From the NCBI GenBank assembly GCA_046563655.1, contig CM102287.1, positions 124,001 to 188,000 on the forward strand: a stretch of 64,000 nt of DNA. The letters run 5' to 3'. Shown here piece after piece: positions 1,630 to 62,360 of this stretch. Position numbers and translations under genes: made by a program. The stretch comes from Yuukianura sp. NJ FZ-2021 (Eukaryota). The first letter of the stretch is position 1; each line of letters begins with the position of its first letter. The notes under the pieces were generated by a model. The model did no database searches and was not told the DNA's origin. It saw nothing but the letters and a program-made list of their open reading frames with translations.

Positions 1630-1967
1630 CCTTCTCTGCTGTTTTCCTCTCCCTGGAAGGTTGCGTACGGAGTTAATACTCCTCCTTCATTTCATGAAGG
1701 TAGAGCCTACTTAATGCTAGACCCTAACACCCTGGCAAGATCTCCTGCAGTAGGTTCAGTCCCCTCCCAGTCCAAAATCTCGAGGTAAATTACAATAATG
1801 CTCCCTTCCTTGAGCATGGGGTGTATTTGTCAACTTGTGTGACATCATCAGTGAGATAGATGGCCTATCGGACTGGCTAGGTCCGGGCATGATGCTCCAT
1901 GGACTGGGATCTAACCTTGAGTTGACGACAACTCTATGAAAATTCTAAAGCCATTCTTCAGAGGGGC

Positions 1968-4445: not shown

Positions 4446-4510
4446 AAATGAATACTGAAACAATCGTCGAGAAATTGTAGGAATTTATATTTTATTTACC
4501 GAAAAAAAAA

Positions 4511-18993: not shown

Positions 18994-19287
18994 TCAAATA
19001 CCATAGCGAATCGGTTTCCGAATTGTCCGTCCGCTTCTTGTAGTCTTCTGTTTTGGTTCTGCAGTTATGACCTCGTCTTCGTCCTGACACGGCAGGCACT
19101 CACAATAAGTGTCGCTGTCGCTGTCAACTGCAGATTGTCGATGACGTTGGAGCTCTCGGCTGTCTTGACACTATTGCTCTCGGATGTCTTGACTGGTGGC
19201 TCCGGTATCTCGTCATGTCTCAATTCCATTGGCACGAGTCGTTGGATGGGACGTAGTAGCTCTCCATTCTTCGTCTTCAATTTGGCT
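18994..19287 (-). pseudogene. pol: C-terminal tail of BEL1 pol, separated by the Gypsy insertion; frameshifted
   Basis: GEIRVA (27274) joins KLKTKNGELLRPIQRLVPME across the GGCT TSD. Confidence 0.85.
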
Positions 19288-19693
19288 TGAAGTGCCCTGG
19301 TTTTCCCCCTTTAGGTTAGGGTCAATTGCCCCTTGAGGTTAGGGAGTGGCCTTAGGTTAGGGTAGTTAGGTTAGGGTTTAGTCTTAGCCTGTAGTGAGAT
19401 TTGGTTTAGCGTTTAGCGGGAGTTTTGAGTAGAGTTAGCGTGGTAGAGGAGAGTCAGGAGAGTATTGAGACTAGTTGTGCTAGTCAGTCGGTTTTTGGTG
19501 TTTGGTTCAGCATGAGCTGAGACTTTGTATCATTTTGTACAAATAAATATCTTTTATATTTATTTGTCTCCGTGTCTTTGTGTTGTTTCTTGGTGTCCCT
19601 TTTGGTCCTCAGTTTTGTTGCATGAGTCCGGCAGTGCTCGGATCGTAGTCTGGAGGCCATCTTTGGCAGTTTTGCGTAGCACGAGGTGCTACA
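19288..19693 (+). repeat. Gypsy 5' LTR
   Basis: Near-identical to 26880-27273 apart from a few small indels and substitutions. Contains TTAGG-like motifs and AATAAA. Confidence 0.95.
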
Positions 19694-19695
19694 CA

Positions 19696-19705
19696 TGGCG
19701 ACCGT
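19696..19705 (+). promoter_or_regulatory. Primer-binding site (probably tRNA-Arg type)
   Basis: TGGCGACCGT lies 2 nt after the LTR and resembles the 412/mdg1-type PBS. Confidence 0.7.
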
Positions 19706-19936
19706 TTTGTGAGTGTTACTGCTGAGGTCAAAGGTCACAATGGTGTAACAACACATGGTGAGTGTTTAAAAACTTTTATTCTGTGTCAAGTGGGATCAAG
19801 ACATCATGTAATTGTTCGTGTGTGGACGTTACCCTTGGTCAAAGGGAAGTGGCCATAAATTCAGAAGTGGATCATCGGTAAATTTTGTACATAGAAGGAG
19901 GAAGTTGCCGAAACAACTTCCACTGGATCCACTCCA

Positions 19937-21468
19937 TGTCAGACAGAAAACCTGTAAGTAAAGAATTTAAAAATCTTGAAATTGATCCTACAGTGACATT
20001 TAAGCTACCAGAGCTTAGTCCAACATCAGATTCGGAAGGACCGTTTCTCCGAAGTCAAGAAAGTAAGATTCCGACTCCAAGTACATCCCCAAAAATCATC
20101 GTTAGTGCCCCAGGTTCATCAGTAACCATGGCAACATACACCAAGGATGAAGTGGATAAGTTAGTGGCCGAGGCCGTGGCCCATGCCGTGCGCGGCGTGG
20201 AGCAGAGATTAGTTCAGCGGGTGACCGGTGGAGTCGCTGCGGTGACTCCAGCCCCTGCGGAGGCAGATCCAGTTGGTCAGACCCAAGCATTGATTACAGC
20301 ATTGAAGAGTATCAAGTTCACATCATTATCATCTAAATTGCCTGTGCCGAGTTTTGATCCAAAGAAGATGTCAGCGGCAGGCTACCTTAATGAAGTAGAG
20401 CGGTACTTCACAGCTCAAGGACACGAGCAAAGGCAGTTTCTTTATCTTGTGAAGACGGTCTTGCCTGTAGAATCTCAACCATGGCTCGACCACATCCTAG
20501 TGACAGTGACGGACTGGGATTCATTCAAAGATGCTTTTATCAACAGATATGATAATTGGATGGACGTGGCAGAACGAACGAGGCTTCTGCACACAAGAAG
20601 ACAACAGTTCAACGAGTCTGTTGAATTTTATTTGTATGATGTGGTTCGGTGCTCCAGATTAATTTATCCACATGAGTCAGTGGCTGATGCAGTGTTACGT
20701 GCTAAATTAGGTTTGAATCCGAGGATTCGCACAGCCCTTGGAACTCAACAATTCGACACAGTGGAATCACTTTTTGATGCATGTCGAATTGCACATGCAA
20801 ATTTGACAGCAGAAGACAGAATCACAAAAAACAAATTCGGATTACCTCCAATTGTCAAGGTCGACTCAAAGTCAGAGTCAGTCAAGAAAGATGATAATTC
20901 CTCTAGTTCAAATGCTGGAAGTTCTGCTGGAACTTCCAATGGAAATAATTGGTTTCGTGGGAAGGAAGCCAAAAATAATAGCTTCCGTGGACACTGGAAA
21001 GGCAAGGGAAATGGCTACAAGAATTATTCCAGTGATCAATCCCCGACTAATGGAAGTAATGGAAGTCCGAACAGTGGACATTCTTCATCTCAACCCAATG
21101 ACCAGTCACAAGGTCAAAGTTCAAAATCCAATTATGACAAGAATTCAGTGCAGCCTCAAAATGAATCATCTGCACGTGGGAAGGGCGGTTACCGTGGTAA
21201 TCGTGGTTCTTCAAATGACAATGACCGTGGTGGTGGTCAAGGCAGAGGTCAAGGTCAGACCTCTAGGCAAGATTTGAGTGATGTTCAGTGCTTCAAGTGT
21301 AATGGTTTTGGGCATCGTAAGTTTCAGTGTCCATCAGGTGTTGGTTTGGCCTTGGGGTCATTTCAAGAGGAGGTCCCTCAAGGACCTCCAGTTCCAAAGA
21401 AGAAGAAGGAGCCACCTGAAAAAAATGAAGCGTCGACTTCTAATGAGAAGTTAAACGCGCAGTGGTGA
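19937..21468 (+). CDS. gag: Gypsy Gag
   Basis: Retrotransposon gag-like core (WDSFKDAFINRY...RRQQFNESV) and CCHC knuckle CFKCNGFGHRKFQC. First ATG at 19937. Confidence 0.9.
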
Positions 21469-21495
21469 ATGAGAAGTCGTCCATCATTCACCCTA
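21450..21495 (+). promoter_or_regulatory. -1 ribosomal frameshift signal between gag and pol
   Basis: Heptamer G_TTA_AAC in the short gag/pol overlap, followed by the stem GGTGAATGA/TCATTCACC. pol is in the -1 frame. Confidence 0.75.
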
Positions 21496-24400
21496 CCCTA
21501 GTGCAAGTTTCGGACGATTTAATTCCTTTTGTGACTGTGGCGAATGAAGATTCGAAATTTTTGGCTATTTTCGACACGGGATGTTCGCAGTCACTCATTG
21601 ATGTAAAGTTATGTGAAAAGTTAAAGTCAGTTGTAGTTCCATTAAAAAATAAATCTACAACGATGATGAATAGTCAGAAGCTGAGTCTGATTGGCTTCTG
21701 TTTTGTGTATATAAAAATTGGTGGTCGAACTTTGAAGTCAAAGTTCTATGTGGCGGAAGGTTTGCCAGTTAAGTGTGTGTTGGGTTCTGATTTTTGTTTT
21801 CAGCATGACATTGTAATTAGATCGAGAAGTAAGGAGTTTTGGTTTGGTGACAATGGAAGTCAGAAATTCAAATTGACTTCCACTACAGAAACAACCGGGA
21901 CTGCGTTGTTTTCAGTGGCTTTACCAGAAAGTCACAAGCAAGATAGTGAAGTGCAAGTGAGAGTTCAGCGTGTCCTAGAGAAATTTCCAACGGTCGTCCG
22001 GAGTGATGGGAAGTTGGGAAGGACGGACCTGACTCATCATGTGATAGAAGATGAAGGATATCCGCCGGCAAGGAATCCTTACAGAAGGTCACCAGAAATG
22101 CAAAAGATCATCAATGATCAAATCCAACAAATGTTGAAGGAAGGTCTAATCAGACCTTCAAGGTCACCGTATGCAGCTCCAGTTGTGGTGGTACCAAAGA
22201 AAGACGGCAGTAAGAGACTCTGTGTGGACTATACGTTGCTCAACCAGCAAACGAAGACGAATGCTGCGCCAATGGAAAGTGCTCATTCCATTTTACACAC
22301 AATTCCTGCTGGTTATTGGTACACAGTGATTGATCTTGCGAAAGGATATTGGCAAGTCAAGTTGCATCCGGACAGTGTTGAGAAGTCAGCATTCGTGACT
22401 CAAGATGGTCATTACGAGTTCCTAGTGATGCCATTCGGATTAAAAAACAGTCCAAAGACGTGTCAGCAGTTGATGCGGAAAGTCATCCAAGGATTCTCCA
22501 AGTTTGCAAAGTGCTACATGGACGATATCATTTTGTTCAGTAAGACTCTGGATGAACATTTAGTGCATTTAGAAAAAGTGCTGAGTAGGTTGAAGATGGC
22601 AGGACTCACCATCAGTCCTCAAAAGTTACAGTGTTGTAGGAGAGAGGTTGATGTGTTGGGCCATCGTTTGACAGAACATGGTCTACAAAAGTGTCCTAAA
22701 AAAGTGAGTGCCATAGTGGATTTCCCTACTCCAAAGAACGTCAAAGAAGTGCAAAGTTTCCATGGAATGACTCAGTGGTATGCTCCGTTTATTGAACATT
22801 TTGCTGCAAAGGCAGAGCCACTGTACCGACTTCTAAGAAAAAACCAAATGTGGGTTTGGGGAGAAGAACAGGAGAAGTCGTTCCATTTACTAAAAGAGTC
22901 AATGTGCAACGATGTGATGTTACATGCAGTTGACTACGACCATCCGATTTTGTTAAAGTGCGATGCGTCGAATTATGGGTTAGGTGCGGCCTTAACTCAA
23001 GTGATTAATGGTGTGGAGAGACCAGTGATGTTTATCAGTAAAACACTCCGAAAATCAGAAATTCGGTACCACATTTACGAAAAAGAGTTGTTCGCGATTA
23101 TTTGGGCCTACCGGAAGCTCAGAGAATACATTGAAGGTCAGAAGTTCACAATTATTACTGACAACAAAGCCTTATCATTCCTCAACAAGATGAAGGAGCG
23201 GAAAGCAAAATTGGCTTTGTGGGATACGGAGATCAAGTCATGGGGTGTCGAGATCAAGCATCGCTCCGGGAAGGATAATGTGGAGGCGGACGCGCTTTCA
23301 CGTGCTCCAGTTCCTGTCGATGAAGCGGACCTCGATTTTGAAGATGATTCCCCGGCGTACATGTACTCGCCAATGGCCATGGCGTTACTGTCGTTTGATA
23401 CTCCTACGATCCAGAAGATGAAAGACGAACAACGAAAGGATCTTGATTTAGTGAAAGTGATCAGTGACATCGAAAGTGGTAAAAGTGTTAAAAGTTACGT
23501 CCTAAAAAATGGCGTACTAGGCAGAGAAGTCATGGGATTTGACTTCTATTCCGATAATGGTTTCTGCGGAGACATTATCGAGGGGCGATGTGCGGAAACG
23601 AGGCCTCAATCTTCCGACATCACTCTAGAGGACGGTGCCCAGAAAGAGTGCAGCAGTTCCTCAGCTCGTAAAAGTGAGCTCATTCAGGTGCCAGTGGTAC
23701 CAAGGGTCATGATACCCGAAATAATGAAGTTACTTCATGATGTGCCAGAAGCAGCGCATCTTGGCATCAAAGCCACAAAAGTAAAAATCAAGAGAAGATT
23801 TTTCTGGAAACACATGAATAAGGACATCAGTGATTATGTGAAATCGTGTCCAGTTTGCCAAGCAGTCAAGTCTTGCAACTACAAGCCCTTTGGTTTACTT
23901 CAAGCAGTGGTGCCGCCAACTAAAGTGTTTGAGAAAATCTACATCGATTTTCTAGGGCCCCTGCCGAGATCTTCAAATCAAAACGAGTATTTGTTCGTCG
24001 TAGAGGACGATTTATCCAAGTGGGTGGAGTTATTCCCGATGCGGAAAGCAAAATCGAAAAAAGTTGTGGAAGTGTTAGTGAATGAAATTTTTTGTCGTTA
24101 TGGTACTCCGAAAACAGTTGTGTCGGACAATGGAAGCCAATTTCTTTCCAAAGTGATGATTAAAATGGCTAAGGACTGGAAGATCAACCATGTTCCTGTA
24201 AGTCCGTACCATGCGCAAGCTAACACAGTCGAAAGGGTCAATCGGAACCTTAAGCCTATGCTCCAGGCTTATGTCGACAAGAATCATAGATCATGGGACC
24301 AGCATCTCCAGAAGTTCGCGTTGGCTCTTAGAACTTCTGTACATTCGACTACTAAAGTGACTCCTGCGTTACTAAATTTAGGTCGTGAGATTCCGCTGCC

Positions 24401-24908
24401 CCTTGATAGGAACTTACAAAGTGATGGTGACAGGGAAGTCCGGAAGTTAGGACTTCTGCCTGCTCAATTGGAAGAAATTATTCAGTTCGTGAGGAAGAAC
24501 ATGGAAGAAGCACATGAGCATAATATCAAGCATTATGACTCTAAACATCAAGAAGGAAACTTTCAAGTTGGTGATTTAGTGCTTATTAAAAATCATTCGT
24601 TGTCAGACAAGAAAAAAGGAATTGCCAAAAAATTAGATCCTCGTTACATTGGTCCATACCAAATTAGTGAAGTGTTAACCCCAGTGACCTTCAAACTTGT
24701 GACATTGCCTGAGAAAACTAATTTTGGAAAGCGTCATGTGTCGGAGTTGAAGCCTTATACTGTTCGCACGTCGCAGTTTGCGGTTCCGAAAATTCCCACT
24801 AAGTCAGAGGATTGGTCGGACTCGGAGGAGGAAGCGAACTCTGGAGGAAGAACTTTGAGGAAAAAAGTTCGGCTCAACTATCGCACGCTCGCTGGATACA
24901 GAAACTAA
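21462..24908 (+). CDS. pol: Gypsy Pol (PR-RT-RH-IN), intact
   Basis: Protease FDTG, RT YMDD, RNase H CDAS...EKEL...TDN, integrase HHCC and DDE (IDF, SDNG, ERVN), GPY module. Confidence 0.95.
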   Translation: MVNEKSSIIHPTLVQVSDDLIPFVTVANEDSKFLAIFDTGCSQSLIDVKLCEKLKSVVVPLKNKSTTMMNSQKLSLIGFCFVYIKIGGRTLKSKFYVAEGLPVKCVLGSDFCFQHDIVIRSRSKEFWFGDNGSQKFKLTSTTETTGTALFSVALPESHKQDSEVQVRVQRVLEKFPTVVRSDGKLGRTDLTHHVIEDEGYPPARNPYRRSPEMQKIINDQIQQMLKEGLIRPSRSPYAAPVVVVPKKDGSKRLCVDYTLLNQQTKTNAAPMESAHSILHTIPAGYWYTVIDLAKGYWQVKLHPDSVEKSAFVTQDGHYEFLVMPFGLKNSPKTCQQLMRKVIQGFSKFAKCYMDDIILFSKTLDEHLVHLEKVLSRLKMAGLTISPQKLQCCRREVDVLGHRLTEHGLQKCPKKVSAIVDFPTPKNVKEVQSFHGMTQWYAPFIEHFAAKAEPLYRLLRKNQMWVWGEEQEKSFHLLKESMCNDVMLHAVDYDHPILLKCDASNYGLGAALTQVINGVERPVMFISKTLRKSEIRYHIYEKELFAIIWAYRKLREYIEGQKFTIITDNKALSFLNKMKERKAKLALWDTEIKSWGVEIKHRSGKDNVEADALSRAPVPVDEADLDFEDDSPAYMYSPMAMALLSFDTPTIQKMKDEQRKDLDLVKVISDIESGKSVKSYVLKNGVLGREVMGFDFYSDNGFCGDIIEGRCAETRPQSSDITLEDGAQKECSSSSARKSELIQVPVVPRVMIPEIMKLLHDVPEAAHLGIKATKVKIKRRFFWKHMNKDISDYVKSCPVCQAVKSCNYKPFGLLQAVVPPTKVFEKIYIDFLGPLPRSSNQNEYLFVVEDDLSKWVELFPMRKAKSKKVVEVLVNEIFCRYGTPKTVVSDNGSQFLSKVMIKMAKDWKINHVPVSPYHAQANTVERVNRNLKPMLQAYVDKNHRSWDQHLQKFALALRTSVHSTTKVTPALLNLGREIPLPLDRNLQSDGDREVRKLGLLPAQLEEIIQFVRKNMEEAHEHNIKHYDSKHQEGNFQVGDLVLIKNHSLSDKKKGIAKKLDPRYIGPYQISEVLTPVTFKLVTLPEKTNFGKRHVSELKPYTVRTSQFAVPKIPTKSEDWSDSEEEANSGGRTLRKKVRLNYRTLAGYRN

Positions 24909-24968
24909 AACGTGCTCTGTTCAGTTAGTCTTATTTAGTTATTTGGAAGTCATTTCCTGACTTCCATC

Positions 24969-26868
24969 ATGCCATCATCAATTGTTAGTGATGTGGTTCC
25001 AGTCAGTGGAAAGAAAAAGAAAACTCAAGATTACTGGAAGAAGAGGCGGGAGTGTGAACTGAAGTATGGTACGGCTGATAAGAGTCCACAGGAACGTAAG
25101 GACATGTTTTTATTTGAATCTGCTCAACGAAATGCATGGGATGAATTCCCATACAAATATCATCCTCATGTGTCGTTAGTGAAAGTTTTTCGGTTGTGGG
25201 ACGCAGTGATGGAGCCTTCAAAACAACCGATTATGGATGAGAGACTGCAAGTGCCAATTCGCCTTATCGACACGGAAGCAAAGTTCATGATTTCGACCCA
25301 AGAATCGGATTACATCATTGATCCGTTCGTAGTGCCAATCCAGATGCAAATGCTGAGGGAAATCTTCTCCAATGGCAACTACATCAAGATTCTGCATGGA
25401 AGTGTTAATGACTTACTCATGTTCCAGCTCCATTATCATATCTTCTTTCGTGGGTGAAATTGACACTCAAATTGCGGATTCTGTCTTTGGAGGGACTCAA
25501 GGACGTGGATTGGACAAAGTGATAAGTGAGTATTTGCCTGGTGTGAAAGTGAGCAAGGATTGTCAACTTGCTGACTTCAGGATCCGTCCAATTGAAAACA
25601 TGCATCCAGACATGATCCAGTATGCCAGGAGTGACACACATTTGTTATTACGTGTGTTTGAAGTCATGAAGCAACGTTATGACTTCAAAAGTGAAAGTGT
25701 TAAGTGGAAGGAGGTTGTCAAATTGTGTAATAATTTGTGCTTAAAAGTCTATACGTTTAAGCCTCATCTAAGTGCCCGTGAGATTCTGGCTAAAGTGGAC
25801 ATGCCCTCTTTAAGTGTAAGTGTGATGGAGGAAGTTGTCGGCTGGAGAGACATGGTTGCCAGGGAGATGGACGTTCAACCAAAGGAAGTCATTGCTGATG
25901 TTACTTGTGCTCAATTGGTCAAGCAAGGGCCTAAAAATAAGTTGGACATTGAAAAAGTGATTGGCAAAAATGTTTTGTCATCGGGTCATTTGGATATGCT
26001 ACTTGAAGTTTTTGTGTCTACTAAAATGGTGGGCGGAGTCACAGAAGTTGGTGCTACAACTTCTACGGTGCAAAAAGTGACTTTGGACTTATCGGTGTTT
26101 GATTGGGATACACCAATCACTAAAGAAGATGTAAAAAGAATGGAACAGGAAGTTATTCAATCAACTTCCAAAAGTGTAAATTTTCCTGCTCCAGTGCCAA
26201 AAGTGACATTGGATTTGTCTGTTTTTGACTGGGATACGCCAGTCACCAGAGAAGATATTGCCAGGATGGAGGCGGAAGTTGCACAATCAACTTCCCAAAA
26301 TGTAAATAGTAGTGCTCCAGTGCCTGTCGACATTGACGGTTTATCGGATGTTTCCGATCTGTCAGACGTTTCTGACGAACCATTGGAGGTGGAGGTTGCC
26401 GATTCGGGAGCGGAAGTTGAGTGCAATGTCCAAGAATTCTGTGACAGCGATGACGGTGAGATGCTGATTGTCACCGTCTCTGAGGATGATCTACGTGAAG
26501 TGGTAGGATTACCGCAAGAAGGCGATCCGAATGTGGTTTATGAACCACAAGTACCAGTGGAAGATCCCCAGGAAGTGATGGATGCGATGGAGGAGGAGCC
26601 CCAGGAAGTAGTAGCTGCTGCCGAACGAAGAGATCGGCGAGATCGGCGAAATTGTCCCCACTGTGGAAGCGAGCGGCATACCGATGTCATGTTTTGCCGA
26701 TTTCGTGATCTGCCGGAAGCGGAGGCCAGAAGACGTCATCGACGCCGGCGTCTCAACATGAATCGACGCCGCAATCTTCGTATTCGTGCTGCGGAGGAAC
26801 GTGCAGCCAGAGAAGCGGAGGAAGATGGAGATCGTGTCCCGAGGATTGCCCCGGAACCCGATCTTTAG
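24969..26868 (+). CDS. RRP6: ORF3: Rrp6/EXOSC10-like DEDDy exonuclease plus HRDC, repeats, acidic region and Cys/Arg-rich tail; one frameshift near 25450
   Basis: ISTQESDYIIDP, IFSNGNYIKILHGSVND, DTQIA, QLADFRIRP, MIQYARSDTHLLL and HRDC-like WRDMVAREMD match Rrp6 motifs in order. The ORF ends at the PPT. Confidence 0.85.
26073..26325 (+). repeat. In-frame 126-bp tandem duplication in ORF3
   Basis: KVTLDLSVFDWDTP.T.ED..RME.EV.QSTS..VN..APVP occurs twice. Confidence 0.85.
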
Positions 26869-26879
26869 AAGGAGGAAGG

Positions 26880-27273
26880 TGAAGTGCCCTGGTTTTCCCC
26901 CTTTAGGTTAGGGTCAATTGCCCCTTGAGGTTAGGGAGTGGCCTTAGGTTAGGGTAGTTAGGTTAGGGTTTAGTCTTAGCCTGTAGTGAGATTGGTTTAG
27001 CGTTTTAGCGCGAGTTTTGAGTAGAGTTAGCGTGGTAGAGAGGAGAGAGACTAGTTGTGCTAGTCAGTCGGTTTTTGGTGTTTGGTTCAGCATGAGCTGA
27101 GACTTTGTATCATTTTGTACAAATAAATATCTTTTATATTTATTTGTCTCCGTGTCTTTGTGTTGTTTCTTGGTGTCCCTTTTGGTCCTCAGTTTTGTTG
27201 CATGAGTCCGGCAGTGCTCGGATCGTAGTCTGGAGGCCATCTTTGGCAGTTTTGCGTAGCACGAGGTGCTACA
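26880..27273 (+). repeat. Gypsy 3' LTR
   Basis: Copy of 19288-19693, preceded by the PPT and followed by TSD GGCT. Confidence 0.95.
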
Positions 27274-30200
27274 GGCTACCCGAATTTCTCCATCCTTCCC
27301 AGGAAGCAGCTCCAGAATCCTCCCCATTGGCCAGAAAATCCTCTTCTTATTGTCTACTTCGATGAGCACGATTTCTCCAATGCTGAAAGTCCTGGTCTTC
27401 TGCTCCTTGCCCCGTTGGACTAATTGACCCAAGTACTCAGAACGAAAACGCTGTTTCACTTCTTGTAGTAATTGGTCCAGCCACTTCTTTTCTTGTCCAA
27501 GGGTATTCGGTATGATCAGTTGAGCCTCCGGCACTTCACAATTTGGAAGATTATGGATGAACATGGCCGGGGTCAAAGGTACAAAGTCGTCTTGATCTTC
27601 TGTGACGTACGTCAATGGTCTGTGGTTCACCGCAGCTTCCACTTCACACAGGGCTGTTTCCAATTGAACGTAAGTCAGCTTCTGGAATCCAAGCATCCTA
27701 CGGAGAAGATCCTTGGTGCTCTTGATGAGCCTCTCCCACCATCCTCCCCACCACGGTGCAAAAGGTGGGTTAAAGATCCATTTGATTTTCTGTTTCTGCG
27801 TTTTCTCTTGAACAAGGTCCCAGTCGATCTCCTTGAACAGATTCACTGCTCCGACGAAGTTCGTTCCGTTGTCAAAGTAGACGATCGATGGCCGTTGTTT
27901 AATCTTGCAGAATCTGATAAATGAGAGAAGAAACTCATGAGTTGACAATGATTCGGTCACCTCCAGATGAACACACCGAAACACTGCACAAGTAAACATG
28001 ACAATGTATGCTTTCTTCCTGTTCTTCAGGGTTAAGGGGCCTGCCAGATCCACTCCAGTCACTTCAAATGCACTGGCCTCTCTTACCCGTGGTTCCGGTA
28101 GAGCACTAGCCACAACTTCAACTGTCTTACCATCAAACCTCTTACACACGATGCACTTTGTTATAACTTTCTTGATGGCTCTTCTTCCCTGGATGATCCA
28201 GTACTTTTCTCTTAACTTGGCCATCATCAGCTGTGCTCCTCCGTGTGCGTTGAAGATGTGAGTGTCCCGGATGATGAGATTGACAATGGGATGAGAATGT
28301 GGAAGTAAAATTGGTTTCCTAAAAGTGTCTGTGTCAACTCGATTAGTCACTTTGGTTTTCACTTTTAGTAGTCCATCTGAGTCCACTAGCACTCTCAAAC
28401 CCTGAATGACACTTTTGTCCATGGGAAATGATTCCTCCTGAATGATCTTGACCAACCTTCGTTCTGCCTCTTCCAGTTCTGTGATTGTAGGAATCTCGGA
28501 CTTCTCTGTCGACTCCTTCTTCAAAAGACTCACAAACCGGATGACATAAGCAAAAACACGAAGAGTCTGATGAAACGAATTCTTGGTGACATACCATGGT
28601 GACGAGGCAGGCGCAGGAGTCGTAATGTTCGTGAGTGTCGCGATACTCTTCTTACGCTCCTGATTGACTGCATCTTCGTCCACCGATGATTCTGATCTGG
28701 GCCACATCTCTTTTTCTAATTTCAGCCAATCAGGTCCCTCCCACCATCGCGACAACACGAACCTGGTCGGAGAAGTCCCCCTGGATGGCAGATCTGCCGG
28801 ATTTTCCAAACCCGGAATGTGGTTCCAGTCTTCTACTTTCGTCAGCTTCAGGATCTCCTTGACCCTATTCCCCACGAACGTCCCCCACTCGTCACTTCGG
28901 CGAATCCACGACAAGGCCGTGCTGGAATCCGTCCAAAGGAAAGTCGGAACGTCGTCTTCGAGGTCTAATGCTGACTTAATGGCTGTGACCAGTCTTGCAG
29001 AAATGCAACACGAAAGAAGCTCCAATCTGGGGATTGTGGTTGGTTTCAGTGGTGCCACTCTAGATTTCGCTTGAATAAATCGGATCTTGACACCGTCTTG
29101 AGTTTCAAGGCGAAGAAACACCACCGTTGCGTAAGCCTTCTAACTTGCATCACCAAACACATGAATTTGGATCTTTCGGTTGTCTCTGGGTGTTCCACTG
29201 GTACAGTCTCGAGGTAGTTGAACTTTGTCACTGACTTCTGCGAATTCCTTGGACCAACTGAGGAATTCTGTCTTCATTTCTGTAGATACTTCTTCATCCC
29301 AAGTCTTGTTCTCGTTCCATGCTTGTTGAAGAAGTACTTTCGGTAGAGTGACAACTGGAGTCCAAAGTCCTAGGGGGTCAAAGAGTTTCTGCAATTGAGA
29401 TAAAATAACTCTTTTAGTCACTTTTAATGGAATAACGGTAGGAACCACATCACAAAAGATCGTGTCCGCCTTCTTATCCCACTTCATCCCTAGAACACTG
29501 GTAATGACTTGATCACTCCAAACACCGGTTCTCTCCCACTGTCTAAGGTCCATTGTAGCCTGTGAAAAAATGTCTGAAGAAACTGATTTCACTTTGTCAA
29601 ACTCGGAATCACTGTCCACTGTAAGAGCTACATTGTCCACGTAAAGTGATCTTTCGATCAAACTTACGACCTCGGGATTTTCACACCGATGCTGGTTCAA
29701 ATGATGGAAGACAACTGCACCTAGAAGGAATGGACTACAGTTCATCCCAAAAACGACTCGGTTGTGCCGAAACACTTTCACTTTTTGTCGTTCCTTGTCC
29801 TCCCACCATAGAAATCTCAGGAAATCACGATCACTTTCTTTCACATTGATCATAAGAAAGGCCTTACGGATATCTGCTATGACACCAATCTTCCCCATCC
29901 TGAAACGAAGTAAAATTGAAGGAAGAAGTTCAAGCAGATTCGGTCCTTTCTCCAAACACTCATTAAGTGACGGATTCCTCCCGATCTTACACGAAGCGTC
30001 AAACACTGGACGCACTGGAGTAGTTAAACTGGCCTTGAAAACGGCGCGATGAGGAACATAATGACATGGAACACTCTCACTGTCACCCAAGTCCTCGACC
30101 ACTGAAATTATGCCCTCGGATTCCCATTCTTGAAACACTTTGTCATAATCTGAGAACCGATTCAGAGACACTAACTTCCGAGTGGTGTTTTCCAACCGCT

Positions 30201-32322
30201 TCTGAGCCACTGCACGATTTGTAGGAAGAGACTGAGATCCATTGATCCAAGGTAGAGTGACAGTGTATCTTTCTTCCGGATCTGTAGTAACTGTCCTCAG
30301 AAAATTTTCAATAGCCTCTCTCTCCCGGTCTTCTTGCGTCTTCTTCTCCACGGGGTCACGAATTCCAAGGACATCCAAAGACCAAAGCTGGGCGACTGTC
30401 GAACTAGCGATAGTCATGGAAACCACAGTCATGGCTACGTCTTCAGAATTGCTCTGTCTTCCTGTAGCTCCCATGACCGTCCAACCCAATCTTGTCTCTG
30501 TTGCCGTCAACCCGTTCTTGAGACGAAAGATCTTCCCTGTCAGAAATTGTCCAATGGTGTCTGCACCCAACAAAACTTCAATTTCGACGGGATTCTTCGG
30601 GTCAAAGTCGTTCAACACAATTCCTCTGTCTCTGAGCATCTTCATCCATGGGCCAGGCGTAATTCTCGGAATTGCTCCGCAGATCTGATGTTGGTCCAAG
30701 AGAAGGAGAGGAACTGAAAACTTAGAATAAACACTGCCGATTAGAACCTTGTAGATTGAATGCTTATTCCCTACGACATTTGTCCCTCCAAACAATGAAT
30801 GATTCATGACCACGGTGTCCTTCTGATCCAGATCCAGCTCCTTGGCCGTACAATCTAGGATGTATGACTTTTGACTCCCGCAGTCGAGTAGAACACGAAC
30901 GTTCTTCTTCTTGTGGCTCACTGGGTTTTCCAACTGCACGATCAGCGTCTGGAGTACGACTTCGCTGGTACAGTTGAGACTTGAGAGCACCGTCTGATTT
31001 TTCTTCCCATCATCTTTGTCTTTTCCTTCACTGGAACCTTTGGTTAACGATGAGATCTGGGGGCAGAGTAGAACCAAATGCTTCTTACCGCAGACAAGGC
31101 ACTGAGGAGTACTACGACACTTATTAGCACGATGTCCACTTTTTAAACACGAAAAACAAACACCCTTCTTCTTGATGACCTCTTTCCTGTCTTCTAATGT
31201 CATCTTTTGTGCCTTAAAGCACTTTTTAGAGGGATGCTGTTTCTCACAGAACAAACACTGGCTTCTCTCTTTGTTTTCAAATTGTCCACTAAACAATCCA
31301 GCCGCTGTGGGCACATCTTCTTCTTCATCTCTGTGACTGTTGTGGCTTTTCTTCTTTTGGCTAGGACCAGGTCCGAAACCAATCTGAGTAAGTGCCCGTT
31401 GTTCCTTGTTGCCCGCTTCTCTCTTGAGAAATGCCAGTAGGAAATCAAGTTCACTCTTTGGTGGGTTCTCCTTGGACCCATCACGCCCAAAGTCGGAACT
31501 TCGTTGCCATGCAACCAAAATGTCCTCCGGCAAGCAGGATTCCACCATAGGAAACAACAGTTCAACCATGTTGTCAACACTTACACCAAGGGACTGTAGA
31601 GACTGAAGAGAAGCTTCTAATTTTCCGTACAGGATGTCCAATGGCTTCTTCTCCTTCGCCCAAGTGTCCCACATCAACTTCATTAATTCTCGAACATACA
31701 CTTGTTTTAGCAGTTTCGGATTCCCGAACCTCTCCTTCAGTGCCTCCAAAGCCTTTGGGTAGTTCTCGGCCGACTCTGGGTACCGCTTGACTACCTCTTC
31801 TGCCTTGGATCCTCGCACCATACACTGAACGAGATACCCGAACTTGTCCACAACGTGTATTTCGTCATCGTCGTCAATCTTCTTGAATTGTGACCACCAT
31901 CCAATCCAGTCGACAAGTTCTCCAGAGTACTTACGTAACTCTGTCTTTGGTAACTTCATCTTCCTGTGTCGGCTGGTGGACGATGCGCCATCATCATTCG
32001 ACGAACGATTCTGTGACTTGACTGGCGGATGCAGTGTCCTTTCTGCCTTAATCTTGATCAAAGTGGCTCTTCTTTTGATGTCATTGTTGGCACGACGCTC
32101 CGTATCCAACATCTCGGTCGAAGTCGACTCATCATCCAAAAGAAAAGTCTCCACTTGTTCATTCAGATCCGCCAACGAGTTCATTGCGTCATCTAGCATT
32201 GACACAGCAGCGATGACGTCATCTTCGGAAACCAATTCCCTCTGGAGTTCGGACTCTAAATTTGCTGTAAGTTCCGCAACATCCAGTCTCTTCATGTCTC
32301 GTGCTCTCTTGGCTCGATCCAT
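27274..32322 (-). pseudogene. BEL1 gag-pol polyprotein with a premature TAG at 29140 and the Gypsy insertion
   Basis: Gag (KLPKTEL), multiple Cys knuckles, protease LLDCGS, RT YVDN, RNase H FGDAS*KAYA, integrase GVDLAGP and WGGWWER. Confidence 0.92.
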
Positions 32323-32481
32323 GTCTCAAAACAAGATTCAACAAAATACCAAAATTAGTAAGAGTACTTATAATTAAATGGACTGATCGATTGGACTGTG
32401 GTGGATGTTAGTTTTACTAGTTTATTAGTATTCTTTACCAATTAAATCCAATTATGACAACTTAGAAAACTTTAACTTATA

Positions 32482-32792: not shown

Positions 32793-35700
32793 TTCCTGTT
32801 CGTCTTCTGGAAAACGTAAGGTCAACCTACCAAAGCTAGAGCTCCCGACTTTTGATGGGAAATACGAGAACTGGTTGTCTTACCGAGACCTTATCACTAC
32901 ATACATCGTGAACAATCGGGATCTAACTGGAGGAGAGAAGTTAGGTAATCTGAAACCAACACTGAAAGGTGATGCTGAAGGTATTATTAAAAACTTTAAC
33001 AGTACTAACAGCAACTTTCAATAGGCCTGGGATCGTCTTAAGGCCAGATACGAGAACAAGAGGGAGATTGTATTCTCCATTCTTAAAAGACTTCTGAGTC
33101 TCAAAGCACTGCCAAGTGACAATGCTTCACAATTAAGGAAACTAATTGATACTTTTAATGAGTCATACAGGTCATTGGCAGCTCTAAAAGAACCAGTTGA
33201 GTCCTGGAACTCAATTCTGGTTTTTCATCTGGTTGATCGCTTATCACCAGTGGGTGGGTTATTTCTGGTCCTATTGGTTCTTCATCCAGTCAGTTCCCAC
33301 CATGCACGGATTGAGGACGAGACTATTCTCAAGTTTTGGGAAATCGAGAGTGTCCCCAATCGGCCATCATTGACACAAGAGGAGAGAGAGTGTGAACAAC
33401 ATTTTGTGTCACATCATACAGTCACACCGAGCGGAAGGTACCGAGTAAGTCTGCCATTTAAGTCTAATCATGAAACTTTAGGTGCCTCCAGACACATCGC
33501 CTTGAGAAGATTTCATAATCTTGAGAGACGACTGCTGCATATGCCGCAGTACAAAGGCGAATACTACAAGTTCATGAGGGAGTATGAGGAGCTAGGTCCA
33601 TGGAGCCTGTCCCTCAATCTGAGTGTGGTGAGGTAATTGGAAAAACCAATTTTCTACCACATCACTTCGTCCTAAAGGAGACAAGTGAAACCACCAAACT
33701 TCGGGTAGTGTTCGACGGATCCGCCAAGACTTCTACGGGAGTTTCGCTAAATCAGTGTCTACTGGTAGGTCCGACGGTTCAAAGCGATATTTTTGCCCAT
33801 CTTCTTAGTTTCAGGTCCAAGCCAATTGCCCTGAAAGCAGATATCACGAGAATGTATCGGCAGTTTGAAGTATCAAAACCGGATCAAGATTTTCAGAGGA
33901 TCTTGTGGAGATACTCAGACACCGAGCCTGTGAGAGAATTCCGACTAAGGACGATAACCTACGGAACGAGTTCGGCTCCCTTCCAAGCCGTCCGCTGTCT
34001 TCACCAATTGGCGACAGACAAAAGTGAATCATTTCTCGTGGGGGCGGAGGTCCTTCGGAATAACTTTTACGTTGATGATCTTTTAGGAGGAGCAAGTTCA
34101 ACCGAAGAGGCTCTTCAGATCTTCCAGGAATTAACATCTTTACTGCAGAGTGCTGGATTGGAAATACGCCAGTGGGACTCCAATGACAGTAAGATATTAA
34201 GTCACATTCCTAATGAACTGAGGGGTAAGAACTCAAAATTAAACTGTGAGTTCAACGACTTGGTCCGAGCACTGGGTGTATACTGGGACTCGAGAGATGA
34301 TGTATTTCATTTCTCTGGGTACACTCCGTCATCTACTACAGTCACCACCAAAAGATCAATTCTATCAGGATTGAGTCGTGTGTTTGATCCACTAGGTCTT
34401 TTGTCACAATATACTGTGTCTTTTAAGATTTATTTCCAGAAACTTTGGACACCAATTGAGAGAAATGGATCTAAACACACCCTAGACTGGGACGAAGAGA
34501 TTCCAGATGAGCTCAGAGGCCCTTGGATGGACTTTGAGAAAAGTCTCCTGTACATTGAACAAGTCAAAGTTCCGAGATTTCTATTCCCAGGGAGACCAAA
34601 AATCGAGATACATCGCTTTTCGGATGGTGCAGAGACAGCCTACTGCGCAGTAGTCTACGCTCGATGTATCAACGGAAGTCAAATTACTACGAATATCATC
34701 GCCGCAAAGACGAAGGTTGCACCCATCAAAGCTATCAGCATCCCTCGTCTGGAGTTATGTGGAGCGCTCCTTCTAGCCAGACTAATTCCTCAGATCATGG
34801 AGGCCATCAAGATCGATTGTCGCATTTTCACATAGAGTGATAGTGGAATCGTTCTGAGCTGGCTTGGCAACACTTCACGTAAGTACAAAACATTCGTTTC
34901 TAATAGAGTGAGTGAGATTCAAGAGGCGATTCCAAGTAAGTCCTGGAGATTCGTACCGGGGAAACTAAACCCTGCGGATCTGGGTACCCGAGGTATTTCT
35001 GCACTGGAACTTGCACAATCAGACGTGTGGTTTGAGGGACCATCCTTTCTGAGGGAGTCAAAACTACCAATTTTTGAGTCTGAGAAAGTCGTCGATGGTG
35101 AGTTGGAGTTGAAAATTGAGAAAACAGTGAGTAATCTGAGTGTCATTGGATCATCGTTCTTTGAGAGGTTCTCTAATCTTGTCAGGCTCAAGAGAGCTGT
35201 GGCATATGTTTTGCGCTTTGTCCATAATTGTAGGTGGAGCTTGGACTCTGGAAATCGCAGAACTGGAAAATTGACAGTTCAAGATCTACGAGAGGCGCTT
35301 ATCTTTTGTGTCAAGGAGTCACAGAGAGAGTCATTCCACAGAGAAATTGACAAACTTGTCAAAAGTAAGTCGCTACCAAAGGGTAATCAATTGGTGCCTT
35401 CGTACCCACTTTTAGACACTGAGGGAGTTCTACGAGTCGGAGGTAGACTCCAGAACTCGGAAGTTAAAGAAGAAGTGAAGCACCAAATCGTTTTAGCTGG
35501 TCAGCATCACTTCACCAAATTACTAATTTTGAATCGACACATCCAACTTCACCATGCGAGCTACCAACTGTTGTCTTCCGATTTGAGGAGAGAGTACTGG
35601 ATCTTAAGGGCCCGAGTCACCATTCGTCATCAATTGCACCAGTGTCTAGCATGCAAGAGGCTCAAAGCAAAAACCTATGAGCAACTGATATGTAGTCTCC

Positions 35701-37776
35701 CATCAGCCAGAGTGAATCCGTCACCGCCTTTTGAGCACACTGGACTTGACTACGCAGGACCACTTAAGGCCCAGGACACGATTGGAAGAGGCAGAAGACA
35801 ACACAATGTCTATTTTTGCATCTTCATATGCCTTTGCACCAAAGCAGTGCATCTCGAGCCAGTGAACGATCTCACGACTGAGGCCTTCATTGGAGCACTG
35901 AAGAGATTTGTGGCCAGGAGAGGATTGCCTTCAACCATTTATTCTGATAATGGTTCGAACCTGGTCGGAGCATCAAACACAATGGACGAGTGGGTAAAAT
36001 TATTAGAAAAATCTAACAATGAAGTTTCCCAGTTTTTAGGAAACCGAGGAGTTCAGTGGAGATTCAATCCCCCTGAAGCCCCACACATGGGAGGTCTATG
36101 GGAGGCCGGAGTGCGCAGCGTAAAGCACCATTTGAGACGAACTGTCGAAGCCCATACCCTAACGCCTGCTACGGACTTACTGTGCTGCTGCTGTGCTGTT
36201 GCCGTGCCATCCCCGTGCTTTGCATTGTTAGCATCCTAACTTCCCAATTTTTAGCGGAAGCACAACATGCTCTCTGCTTACCGTGCTCATGCTCTGTTCA
36301 AATTTCATCCGGTAAGTTAGGATCGAATCGGTAAGTTTTCTTGCATTTTTGCAAGCAAATCACTGGTTTCCCACTCAAAAGTCATTTTTAAATCACTATT
36401 TAATAAAAAATGTCAGATTTGTGTTCTCCATACACGAATTAGTCTAAAAACTGATTTTCATCAAAATCAAGCAAAAAACAAAGTTTCGAAAAAAAAAAAT
36501 TTCAAAATTTTTTTAAAAGGGGATGGCACAAACTCCATAAGAAAGTTGCCTTGGTGGTATTCAAATGAAATTTTCACCAGTTGTTCAGGCCACCACTGGC
36601 ATCATATTTGCAAATTTTCAGACCCCTAGAAACAATAGGTCAAGGATCACGGGGGGTCAAAGGTCACCATGTCATCCTATGACGACCCCATATAAACTGC
36701 ATATCATTGGAATGGGCTTGACGTCCTAATTCAGAAAATGCATATATGTCAATACTTGGTTAAAATAGTTTTTCTATATTCCAATGTTTCCTTTGATTTC
36801 CCATGAGGTCACTGCGCCGGTGTCAAAGGTCAAAGGTCAGGTCAACATGTGACATTACCTACGCTTTTCGGAGTGATCTGACGAAGAGAAGGACACCTCA
36901 TTTGTTCAAATCGGTCCAGTAGTTTCGGAGGAGTATTCAGAAAATGAACAAAAAAATAATTGTAAAAGCAAATTTGCTCTCGTCGTGCTTCCTCAAAAGT
37001 TGCTTCCGTCCCTACTTTCAAAAGACCACGGTAAGAGCAGGAGCACGGTAAGGTAAACGGTAAGTTAGGATGCTTGCCCTTGCTCTGTCGTTGCCTTGGA
37101 AAAATGAGGCAGCACAGCACGGGGAAGGCACAAGTAAGTTAGGATCGGTAATTTTTAACAAAAACAGCGCAGCAAAGCATCGTCAAGGCAGCAGCACGGT
37201 AAGTCCGTACCGAGCGTAACACTGGAAGAGTTTCATACCATTCTCACAATGGTCGAGTCAGTGCTGAATTCGAGACCGATTTGCGCCATGACAGAGGACC
37301 CAGAAGACTACAGCGTTTTAACACCAGGGCACTTTCTGATTGGAAGACCCTTAACTGCAATTCCCGAGCCAAGTCTTCTGCACCTCAACGGGAACAGATT
37401 GTCACGTTGGCAACGTGTGCAACACATCATGGAGCACTTTTGGAATCGTTGGAGAAACGACTACCTACATTCACTTCAAGAGCGACATAAGTGGAGGAAA
37501 CCGCAGAGCAACATTGAAGTTGGAGAGCTAGTTCTTCTGAAAGAAGACGACATTCCCCCACTCAAATAGAAGATGGCAAGAGTGATCGCAGTCTACCCTG
37601 GGAGCGACAGTCTCATCAGATCTACGGTCGACATCAAGTACAAGACAAGTAAATGTGGAAAGGATGGCAAATTGAAAGAAACGTGCCACATTCTAAAACG
37701 TCCAGTGGTCAAGATCTGCCCCCTCTTACCCCCTCCATCAGCAGAAGATCCTAGAAGTCATCTAAGAGTAACTTAA
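32793..37776 (+). pseudogene. BEL2 gag-pol remnants
   Basis: ORF pieces 33175-33636, 33600-34835, 34908-36162, 37249-37569 and 37573-37776 are collinear parts of one Pao polyprotein. Confidence 0.88.
36163..37216. mobile_element. PIF/Harbinger-type non-autonomous element in BEL2 integrase
   Basis: TAA TSD on both sides and imperfect TIRs CGCCTGCTACGGACTTAC / GTAAGTCCGTACCGAGCG. Removing it restores HTLTLEEFHT. Confidence 0.85.
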
Positions 37777-62330: not shown

Positions 62331-62360
62331 GCTAAACCAACAAAAGAACAGAACGAAAAA

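Follow-up and report, generated by a model that had tools for sequence, protein, structure and literature searches.

The Gypsy-type element at 19288–27273 of the 64,000-nt stretch of DNA analysed here (the window) is probably a recent Ty3/Gypsy copy from a lineage in which a third gene, ORF3, has been kept by selection as an Rrp6-type nuclease core, a free-standing RNA 3'-end enzyme that appears to be dead in this particular copy. Judged from its sequence, ORF3 would encode the core of an Rrp6/EXOSC10-type DEDDy 3'-5' exoribonuclease, made up of pre-EXO linker, EXO and HRDC; an acidic linker, a single CCHC knuckle and a basic tail are joined to this core, and PMC2NT, the Rrp47-binding domain, is absent. 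Accessory genes of retrotransposons offer a rare view of the limits to their spread.

LTRs, target duplication, PBS, PPT, gag and pol were all identified in the element, with every feature on the plus strand. The insertion is bounded by the target-site duplication GGCT, whose left copy (19284–19287) is identical to the four letters read behind the 3' LTR (27274–27277). Both LTRs begin with TG and end with CA; they were delimited from repeat families (D1 and D2 for the 5' LTR) and from the LTR alignment and measure 406 nt (5' LTR, 19288–19693) and 394 nt (3' LTR, 26880–27273). The alignment is identical in 341 of its 406 columns, with the differences, including a 12-nt indel, confined to columns 115–179. 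A candidate PBS-like sequence, TGGCGACCG, is found at 19696–19704, 2 nt past the 5' LTR, and the PPT, AGAAGGAGGAAGG, occupies 26867–26879 and adjoins the 3' LTR. The TGG with which the candidate PBS starts suits the CCA end of a tRNA, as is the established rule. The gag frame (19936–21468; first ATG at 19936, frame open from 19882) carries a CCHC zinc knuckle (zf-CCHC, E 7.1e-4) and is followed in the -1 frame by pol (21447–24908), the two overlapping by 22 nt. Both frames are open. Along pol, Pfam placed Asp_protease at 33–116, RVT_1 at 249–408 (E 8.4e-32), RT_RNaseH at 496–596 (2.3e-30), Integrase_H2C2 at 751–809 (1.4e-19), rve at 826–922 (1e-13) and a Tf2-type SH3 domain, SH3_Tf2-1, at 1042–1104 (4.4e-9). 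The order protease-RT-RNase H-integrase, together with the form of the LTRs, the short target duplication, the PBS, the PPT and the knuckle-bearing gag, is that of Ty3/Gypsy elements (Metaviridae).

The preliminary description of this DNA had reported an element with LTRs, target duplication and open gag and pol, and this was confirmed; an empty site, namely a joint from 19283 to 27274 with 4 shared letters, was recovered in one contig in each of the four sequencing runs. The window copy is probably a recent insertion. The element is multi-copy in sequencing runs from two organisms; all matches to the runs are to contigs. Both flanks of the insertion belong to a minus-strand BEL/Pao element, recognised from Peptidase_A17, DUF1759 and RVT_1 in 29140–32322 and from an rve-type ORF at 27064–29139. 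Rfam and tRNA scans of the 64-kb window returned no match.

ORF3 extends from 60 nt past pol exactly to the PPT, which overlaps its stop codon TAG (26866–26868). This extent agrees with the preliminary description, but the single ORF from 24969 to 26868 described there does not exist. Part A, in the frame of the ATG (24969–25457), terminates at a TGA at 25455–25457, and part B (25453–26868) is read in the +1 frame. Part A holds an Rrp6-type pre-EXO linker, RNAWDEFPYKYHP, at 25128–25166 and a 'VDTxxxF'-type motif at 25263–25286, followed by EXO, which here begins with the 'QIST' region and runs through ExoII (VNDLL, 25404–25418). Part B continues with ExoIII (YARSDTH, 25621–25641), HRDC at about 25822–25965, an acidic region in which two FDWD motifs occur, then a C-x2-C-x4-H-x5-C knuckle at 26653–26697 and a basic tail at 26728–26787. 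Within the acidic region a tandem duplication of 126 nt, or 42 codons, spans 26060–26311; the two units are 75% identical and each carries one FDWD motif. Part B was delineated with Pfam, hhalign and MAFFT, and part A with Pfam (DNA_pol_A_exo1 profile positions 44–99) and hhalign (columns 9–186), the two halves being colinear with the family profile at hhalign probabilities of 99.1% (A) and 99.7% (B, through HRDC). The profile check proposed at the outset was positive for DNA_pol_A_exo1, found in both frames above the gathering score (E 1.7e-6 and 1.7e-7), while HRDC (E 3.3e-4) scored 21.0 bits, slightly below the 23.8 cut-off. HRDC directly follows EXO, so that the host order of the Rrp6 motifs claimed earlier was borne out by Pfam. 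The EXO domain itself is incomplete.

What is missing is ExoI. An in-frame gap of 33–34 residues at 25286–25287, relative to all 8 relatives, was located by MAFFT and hhalign and leaves positions 1–43 of the Pfam profile unmatched. The D-x-E segment of ExoI falls in this gap, and of the full DEDDy set (D-E-D-Y-D) the window copy retains ExoII and ExoIII only. The motif 'LIDTE' (25263–25277; 'DTE' at 25269–25277) was considered as ExoI and rejected, as it aligns with the family 'VDTxxxF' upstream of ExoI. With 'LIDTE' equated to 'VDTxxxF', the gap requires a single deletion, which is preferred to an account with two. One contig from run X2 matches the window only from 25289 onward, with 62 unmatched letters before that point. 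The second lesion is the frame break, a one-base length difference at 25443–25456 that moves the reading from frame A to +1; here the Pfam and hhalign matches to the two halves abut at family column 186. All 10 contigs covering the site (from 4 runs) differ from the window letter at 25457, and two contigs from run X3 are one base out of register at the break. Programmed frameshifting was rejected as an explanation, since the reading frame is continuous in each of the 8 relatives. By its sequence, then, ORF3 in the window copy is predicted to be dead, with the ExoI segment lost and the frame shifted. The near-identical LTRs of a copy with a broken ORF3 indicate that ORF3 is not required in cis, and the gene may be dispensable. 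They suggest that the copy moved either without an ORF3 product of its own or on product that came from other copies.

The ancestry of the nuclease was evaluated by searches against the PDB and by tree building. Of the 14 distinct sequences that phmmer matched at E≤1, 13 were Rrp6/EXOSC10 (7e-10 to 1.4e-6). With the family profile, Rrp6/EXOSC10 structures were matched at 2e-61 to 2e-58, followed by E. coli RNase D (2.7e-25), Mut-7 (2.9e-17) and Egalitarian (1.6e-7). The match to human EXOSC10 begins at profile position 12, which means that the N-terminal linker is covered. Matches to Rrp6 structures stop after HRDC, at position 383 of 564, and the C-terminal exosome-anchoring region finds no counterpart beyond this point as judged by alignment rather than by a domain model. 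In the tree, which came from a quick search and has long branches, the element family including the window sequence formed one clade (SH-aLRT 92), and the element proteins together with cellular Rrp6 were set apart from RNase D with a support of 100. The family lies outside all sampled cellular Rrp6, and an animal origin was not rejected (AU p 0.083). In sequence ORF3 is closest to Rrp6/EXOSC10, ahead of RNase D, WRN and Mut-7. The proposal of an Rrp6 ancestry was upheld by the separation from RNase D in the tree and by the profile scores (about 1e-61 against 2.7e-25), and ORF3 is accordingly assigned, on sequence grounds, to descent from a eukaryotic Rrp6/EXOSC10-type enzyme and not from RNase D, with no particular donor indicated.

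Relatives were sought by a HMMER scan of 1.84 billion representative proteins, which resulted in 494 matches at E≤1e-3. The top match was P0002 (2.9e-27), followed by P0003, P0004, P0005, P0006, P0008, P0010 and P0020, and these share one common architecture of 520–704 aa comprising linker, EXO, HRDC, acidic region, CCHC knuckle and basic tail. The C-terminal knuckle is present in at least 9 proteins among the 150 of the 494 matches listed. The 8 full-length family ORFs, drawn from a collection of predicted proteins that favours open frames, are 22–42% identical to each other and only 22–34% identical to ORF3 of the window. D-E-D-Y-D residues are kept in 6 of the 8. The exceptions are P0010, in which the ExoI E is replaced by G, and P0020, which has lost 4 of the 5 catalytic residues; both are still full length, and catalysis may be non-essential in the family or these copies may be decaying. 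Pfam analysis of 5 relatives gave a complete EXO in all five and HRDC above the gathering score in 3. The PMC2NT domain (PF08066), present in most cellular matches of the family-profile search, was found by Pfam neither in the 5 relatives scanned nor in the pieces of window ORF3. The residue after 'DTH' of ExoIII is aliphatic in all 8 family members and aromatic in the 31 other rows of the alignment, without exception in either set. Acidic 'D/E-W-D/E' motifs past HRDC were seen in the window sequence and in 4 of the 8 relatives. They resemble the 'W-acidic' motifs of motor adaptors; this reading was not adopted as the motifs are not universal in the family.

The genomic context of ORF3 recurs in relatives. 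Metagenome searches with 4 closer sequences yielded one locus, L001, where a pol C-terminus 48% identical to that of the window is followed on the same strand by an ORF3 that is 28% identical. Two springtail gene models, both with PF01612, have a comparable order: P0194 of Folsomia candida runs from integrase into the N-terminus of ORF3, ExoI and ExoII (E 2e-12), and P0177 of Orchesella cincta from integrase into ExoIII. These three contexts are the ones inspected for pol followed by ORF3. Further pairs, P0163/P0010 and P0187/P0004, are presumed only from the equal sizes of their contigs (8283 and 4273). Restriction of ORF3 to a single copy, named beforehand as an outcome that would speak against the proposal, was not observed, and the idea that the gene is carried as cargo gains from its recurrence downstream of pol in distant relatives. 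The family-profile search placed P0002 first and cellular Rrp6 next, brought up none of the other family members and added no named transposon members; a scan of viral contigs for the family gave none, and a protein search with part B alone returned a single weak match, EXOSC10 of Pelobates (2.1e-4). From these comparisons ORF3 is read as a conserved and selected feature of the Gypsy lineage. As the relatives are merely 22–34% identical to the window sequence, it also appears to be an old feature of that lineage and not a fresh capture in the window copy.

The ORF3 protein is probably made from a spliced subgenomic RNA, in the manner of errantivirus env. The leader contains two matches to the 5' splice-donor consensus, GTGAGT at 19709–19714 and 19758–19763, and a T-rich stretch at 24910–24938 holds candidate splice acceptors, AG at 24923–24, 24927–28 and 24937–38; all are consensus matches only. 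This candidate acceptor stretch precedes the ORF3 ATG in the window element, and in L001 the sequence ...ttcattcttgtctaaattacag, likewise a consensus match only, is located 1 nt before the ATG. Once made, the protein would be a free-standing enzyme that trims or degrades RNA 3' ends independently of the exosome core, with HRDC, knuckle and basic tail probably bringing it to RNA. Its role would be either in processing the ends of the element's own RNA or cDNA or in acting against RNA-based silencing by the host, and we regard the two as about equally likely.

If ORF3 is directed against the host, the nuclease would attack RNA-based silencing, for instance small-RNA precursors or further surveillance RNAs, which it would trim or destroy. 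This is a tentative reading, for which the retention of the catalytic pentad in most members speaks, as does the loss of PMC2NT and of Rrp6 likeness past HRDC, since a nuclease so freed could choose its own substrates. Mut-7, a DEDD relative with a small-RNA role, is also among the structural matches. Mut-7, Nibbler and EXD1 work in small-RNA pathways, and the exonuclease of the arenavirus NP suppresses sensing; the proposed attack would be akin to the dampening of innate sensing by certain viral DEDD exonucleases. The recent move of a copy with a dead ORF3 counts against such a role, although a suppressor provided in trans by other copies explains it equally well. A further point against it is that Rodriguez et al. 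saw no clear link of DEDDy ORF3s to copy number in rotifers (PMC5408684).

Use of the nuclease in replication is possible, though likewise held with reserve. The protein would then be packaged by means of its knuckle and tail and would trim the 3' ends of genomic RNA, primer or cDNA within the particle, with end-trimming or crude proofreading as the result. The C-terminal CCHC knuckle and basic tail do resemble the nucleocapsid part of gag. Furthermore, the post-pol ORF of a neighbouring related Gypsy element in the window shares the knuckle and tail end but has no nuclease, which suggests that the nuclease joined an ORF3 scaffold associated with RNA or particle. Processing of the 3' ends of element RNAs has also been proposed for the rotifer ORF3s (PMC5408684, PMC6431247). 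Several observations run counter to a role in replication: a PBS that starts with TGG fits a full tRNA 3' end and makes primer trimming unnecessary, the closest kin of ORF3 are RNA enzymes and not DNA proofreaders, most Gypsy lineages dispense with such a gene, and the window copy combines near-identical LTRs with a dead ORF3.

The exosome decoy raised in the preliminary description, in which the protein would vie with the host's Rrp6 for binding to the exosome or to exosome cofactors and thereby protect element RNA from decay, is a poor fit and we consider it very unlikely. It would accord with the Rrp6 ancestry, and the two full-length members with lost catalytic residues are what might be expected of a pure binder. 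However, PMC2NT is missing from the window pieces and from all relatives scanned, the Rrp6 match ends after HRDC with no recognisable exosome-anchoring region beyond, and the catalytic residues, needless for a decoy, are all kept in 6 of 8 members. Less probable still is that ORF3 is passenger debris, a host fragment or nested insertion peculiar to the window copy and devoid of a role. The gene is broken twice here, and its sequence departs from that of other copies in many places (at least 17 'other letter' sites within ORF3 among the 40 rows listed for contigs against window, out of a longer set with 851 more rows). The same gene nonetheless stands in the same place in L001 and in the two springtail models, the family is monophyletic, ORF3 fills the interval between pol and PPT exactly, and contigs cover it in all 4 runs. 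The least credible reading is that ORF3 replaces env and serves the element in leaving or entering cells, to which its position and the candidate acceptors ahead of its ATG might point, given that no transmembrane-like segment occurs in the window pieces or the 8 relatives (maximum 19-residue hydropathy 1.54), that Pfam found no envelope family in the window pieces or the 5 relatives scanned, and that the fold family is that of a soluble nuclease.

The reading preferred here, of a selected Rrp6 core that works apart from the exosome, can be set beside known systems. ORF3 of the family shares with Rrp6/EXOSC10, by far its best sequence match, the pre-EXO linker with its RPQ...HP motifs, EXO with ExoI–III and HRDC in the same order; it differs in being encoded by a retrotransposon and in having acidic linker, CCHC knuckle and basic tail in place of PMC2NT and the parts that follow HRDC. 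Mut-7/EXD3, Nibbler, EXD1 and Egalitarian have the exonuclease fold in common with ORF3 but stand much further from it than Rrp6 does; they are host genes and lack an HRDC arranged likewise. Like ORF3, the env of errantiviruses such as Drosophila gypsy is a third gene past pol that ends at the PPT, with a spliced subgenomic mRNA that for ORF3 is probable; env is a membrane glycoprotein, whereas ORF3 of the window type is predicted to be a soluble nuclease.

The closest published parallel comes from bdelloid rotifers, and the earlier impression that the arrangement had not been described is not sustained, as its general kind was published in 2017. The paper reports the LTR retrotransposons Juno and Vesta, Gypsy-like elements that bear ORF3s for DEDDy 3'-5' exonucleases downstream of pol (Rodriguez, Kenefick and Arkhipova 2017, PMC5408684). 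According to the same text, these ORF3s have no transmembrane domain, carry a Cys/His metal motif in some cases and are of function not known; they are called RNase D-like and are closer to each other than to Rrp6, RNase D, Mut-7 or WRN (PMC5408684). The term 'HRDC' has 0 occurrences in that paper. The rotifer hosts belong to a different phylum, and the comparison with ORF3 of the window is made from the published description alone. In so far as the paper places the rotifer proteins apart from Rrp6 (PMC5408684), it would argue for separate origins of the rotifer and window-type ORF3s. Athena/Terminon Penelope-like elements are described as also carrying a DEDDy exonuclease as accessory gene; they represent another class of retroelement, telomere-associated and without LTRs or integrase, and are reported from rotifers only (PMC5408684, PMC6431247). 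A search of the literature, as distinct from Repbase, Dfam and GyDB, for the arrangement outside rotifers found only papers of the Arkhipova group.

DEDDy-exonuclease ORF3s in LTR elements had been reported only from bdelloid rotifers, where their origin was unclear (PMC5408684). The present family adds a different phylum, an origin from an Rrp6/EXOSC10 core that is unambiguous down to the pre-EXO linker and HRDC, and a defined pattern of loss (PMC2NT and Rrp6 likeness past HRDC) and gain (knuckle and basic tail). These results suggest that DEDDy nucleases were recruited by retroelements more than once. As intact natural members exist, the use of an RNA 3'-5' exonuclease by a retroelement is directly testable. 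A bolder reading, which we think rather unlikely, is that arthropod Gypsy elements took up an exosome-free Rrp6 core independently of the rotifer elements, joined it to an RNA-binding knuckle and tail and use it as a trans-acting suppressor of RNA silencing or surveillance, with dead copies such as that in the window riding along on the product of intact ones. The suppressor would act on 3' ends, either of small-RNA precursors or of transcripts marked for surveillance, and, if this reading were true, two DEDDy acquisitions in two phyla would mark a general and unrecognised counter-defence strategy of retrotransposons. At the level of annotation, springtail gene models that fuse an integrase with a '3'-5' exonuclease' are to be taken as transposon genes and not as host genes.

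The Ty3/Gypsy element is a complete LTR retrotransposon spanning window positions 19288–27273. Its LTRs of 406 and 394 nt start with TG and end with CA and are identical in 341 of 406 alignment columns, with every mismatch and a 12-nt indel confined to columns 115–179. Sequence reading placed the target duplication GGCT at both element ends, the PBS-like TGGCGACCG 2 nt 3' of the 5' LTR and the polypurine tract AGAAGGAGGAAGG next to the 3' LTR. The frames of gag (19882–21468, first ATG at 19936, with a CCHC knuckle) and pol (21447–24908, encoding protease, RT, RNase H, integrase and a Tf2-type SH3 domain) are both open. A BEL/Pao element on the opposite strand encloses the Gypsy element. Each of the four public sequencing runs (X1–X4), which stem from two coded organisms, contains one contig in which 19283 is linked to 27274, four letters being shared at the joint. 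This joint is the uninterrupted target and confirms the element boundaries and the 4-bp duplication. The LTRs, target duplication and intact gag and pol of the preliminary description hold. As the uninterrupted form reaches high depth in every run, the BEL/Pao target is itself a repeat. Three BEL/Pao-type elements or fragments with Peptidase_A17, DUF1759, RVT_1 and rve domains lie in the window, at 27274–32325 (minus), 33025–36239 (plus) and 49438–51837 (minus), the first being the target of the Gypsy insertion.

The third gene, ORF3, starts with an ATG at 24969, 60 bases past the pol stop, and is open to a TGA at 25455–25457. A second, +1 frame extends without a stop from 25357 up to a TAG at 26866–26868 that overlaps the polypurine tract. 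The Pfam domain DNA_pol_A_exo1 is split across these frames (profile positions 44–99 in the first, E 1.7e-6; 101–170 in the second, E 1.7e-7) and is followed directly by HRDC (E 3.3e-4, slightly below the gathering score). A phmmer search of PDB with the second piece returned 14 distinct sequences at E<=1, of which 13 were Rrp6/EXOSC10 and the last an RNase D-like protein. The Rrp6-like content first noticed from the sequence alone was thereby borne out.

A full HMMER scan of the second piece against 1.84 billion representative proteins gave 494 matches at E<=1e-3, nine of them reaching E<=1e-10, headed by P0002 (E 2.9e-27, 34% identity). Eight proteins of 520–704 aa (P0002, P0003, P0004, P0005, P0006, P0008, P0010 and P0020), encoded on short contigs from metagenome, ENA or Logan assemblies and labelled 'ribonuclease D' at source in two cases, have an architecture in common with the window ORF3. 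From N to C terminus this comprises an 'RPQ..N ... RN.W..FP...HP' stretch, a complete EXO domain, HRDC, an acidic region, a C-x2-C-x4-H-x4-C knuckle and a basic tail. Among the best 150 of the 494 matches the knuckle occurred in nine, the eight family members and P0137. Lys and Arg together account for 10–23 of the last 60 residues in the relatives and for 18 in the window copy, and no segment of transmembrane strength was found in the window pieces or the eight relatives (maximum 19-residue hydropathy 1.54). In a Pfam scan of five relatives all had full DNA_pol_A_exo1 (E 1e-14 to 1e-32) and three had HRDC above cut-off. The catalytic D-E-D-Y-D set is kept in six of the eight members; P0010 has an ExoI E->G change and P0020 lacks four of the five residues. 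The residue after 'DTH' is aliphatic in all eight as opposed to aromatic in all 31 other rows compared. On sequence grounds ORF3 is thus a family and not a one-off of the window copy.

The window copy itself is not the single intact ORF originally described, as it carries two lesions. One is a one-base frame change inside 25443–25456, where hhalign placed the end of the first piece and the start of the second in the same family column, 186. The other is the absence of 33–34 residues after 25286, between 'LIDTEAKF' and 'MISTQ'; the absent stretch carries the ExoI D-x-E motif in all eight relatives, and positions 1–43 of Pfam DNA_pol_A_exo1 have no match in the window ORF3. The window 'DTE' was rejected as ExoI since it aligned to a conserved 'VDTxxxF' motif upstream of it. 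ExoII (VNDLL, 25404–25418) and ExoIII (YARSDTH, 25621–25641) are present. The knuckle, C-x2-C-x4-H-x5-C, is one residue longer than in the relatives, and a 126-nt tandem duplication (26060–26311, 75% identical) in the acidic region doubles a 42-residue unit with 'FDWD'. Similar acidic-Trp motifs follow HRDC in four of the eight relatives (P0002, P0004, P0008 and P0010).

All ten contigs covering position 25457 have a different letter there, and the TGA at 25455–25457 is accordingly private to the window copy. In run X3, two contigs are offset from the window by one base at the frame break, which falls in a short stretch of repeated letters and could therefore be an assembly error. One contig of X2 matches from 25289 onward only, its 62 preceding letters being unmatched, which is consistent with loss of the ExoI segment from the window copy in particular. 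At 25761–25881, contigs of X1, X2 and X4 have 15 other letters in place of 119 HRDC-region bases, so that a shorter ORF3 variant circulates among copies.

The gene order recurs in relatives. L001, the 5035-bp metagenome contig encoding P0008, encodes the last 255 residues of a Gypsy pol (1580–2347; 48% identical to window pol, with the same '..NYRTLAGYR' end), followed on the same strand by ORF3 at 2673–4784. The two ORF3s are only 28% identical over ExoIII and HRDC, which indicates that ORF3 evolves faster than pol, yet is retained. Upstream on L001, pol is cut off by a pair of ORFs on the minus strand (57–1145; 125 and 236 codons), which we would guess to be part of another inserted element. 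Equal contig sizes suggest that pol P0163 and ORF3 P0010 (both 8283) share a contig, as do P0187 and P0004 (both 4273). Springtails (Orchesella dallaii, O. cincta and Folsomia candida) supply the closest named relatives of the window pol, and PF01612 follows integrase in two of these gene models. In F. candida P0194, residues 815–974 align to P0002 4–173, a span that begins at the ORF3 N-terminus and takes in ExoI and ExoII (E 2e-12). In O. cincta P0177 the pol end motif precedes an ExoIII stretch, and the model terminates in 'CFKC'. Relatives of this kind suggest a springtail or some other arthropod as host of the element. Judged from these alignments, the pol-then-ORF3 arrangement is conserved.

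The origin of the nuclease was investigated with a family profile. Among PDB sequences it matched Rrp6/EXOSC10 best (13 distinct sequences, 2e-61 to 2e-58), followed by E. coli RNase D (2.7e-25), Mut-7 (2.9e-17), Egalitarian (1.6e-7) and WRN HRDC (1.2e-4). The human EXOSC10 match begins at profile position 12, corresponding to EXOSC10 residue 208, which identifies the family N-terminal stretch as the Rrp6 pre-EXO linker; matches to Rrp6 structures stop at position 383 of 564. A search of 5.8 billion proteins recovered fungal and animal cellular Rrp6, most with PMC2NT, at 1e-60 to 1e-50. A quick maximum-likelihood tree of 47 rows (eight family members, the window piece, 6 animal and 9 fungal Rrp6, 13 unnamed matches and 10 RNase D-like outgroup sequences) set the family and cellular Rrp6 apart from RNase D (support 100) and united the family, window included, in one clade (support 92). 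The family fell, on long branches, outside every sampled cellular Rrp6 (support 92); constraining it with animals was 29.3 log-likelihood units worse and was not rejected (AU p 0.083). Taken together, these results make the gene one of eukaryotic Rrp6 type and the capture an old one. An Rrp6-type gene as third gene of a Gypsy element, as proposed in the preliminary description, is thus supported, while its recent capture is not.

The family shares the catalytic Rrp6 core and HRDC and adds the knuckle and basic tail; nothing beyond HRDC aligns with Rrp6. Its product would be a free-standing 3'-5' exoribonuclease, which its own binding modules may bring to RNA. A spliced subgenomic RNA would probably serve as the template for translation: GTGAGT is matched twice in the leader (19709–19714 and 19758–19763), and T-rich AG sites lie ahead of the ORF3 ATG in both the window and L001, the latter having '...aattacag' up to one base short of the ATG. 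Two roles are about equally likely: the enzyme may act in counter-defence, against RNA-based silencing, or it may process ends as the element itself replicates. The exosome decoy suggested earlier fits poorly, as PMC2NT was found in none of the five relatives scanned, the Rrp6 match stops after HRDC, and catalytic residues needless for a decoy are kept in six of eight members. Near-identical LTRs alongside a dead ORF3 in one copy argue against a need for the product in cis. Function can be tested, as natural intact members exist.

The arrangement had been thought undescribed. Its general kind is known from bdelloid rotifers, where Rodriguez, Kenefick and Arkhipova (2017; PMC5408684) described DEDDy-exonuclease ORF3s in the LTR retrotransposons Juno and Vesta, in passages stating that no such exonucleases had been reported in retrotransposons before. 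Passages of later reviews again give exonuclease ORFs for rotifers only (PMC5718144, PMC6431247). In the 2017 paper the rotifer ORFs are called RNase D-like and cluster together and not with Rrp6 (PMC5408684), whereas the window family groups with Rrp6; that paper nowhere uses the word HRDC, whereas HRDC is present in the window family. Searches of the published literature turned up no description of an Rrp6/HRDC-type ORF3 for Gypsy elements of arthropods. Relative to the rotifer ORFs as described, the different phylum, the clear Rrp6 origin with HRDC and the added knuckle and tail are new.

A second Gypsy element (61683–63998, minus) is cut by the window end, and its pol is 34–41% identical to that of the main element. 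Downstream of pol, separated from it by one stop codon and keeping its frame, comes a proline-rich ORF of 225 codons that had no match in Pfam and ends in a CCHC knuckle (CLRCGQPGHYASTC) and basic tail. This ORF shares its C-terminal module with the nuclease ORF3 family but is without EXO and HRDC, which suggests a modular ORF3 in which the nuclease was either added to or lost from the knuckle-tail module. Elsewhere in the window, a 377-codon open frame at 553–1686 (minus) with a full matrixin domain (Peptidase_M10, E 2e-44) is probably a host metalloprotease gene or exon, and a 193-codon open frame at 41013–41594 (plus) carries a C2H2 zinc finger (E 1.2e-5).
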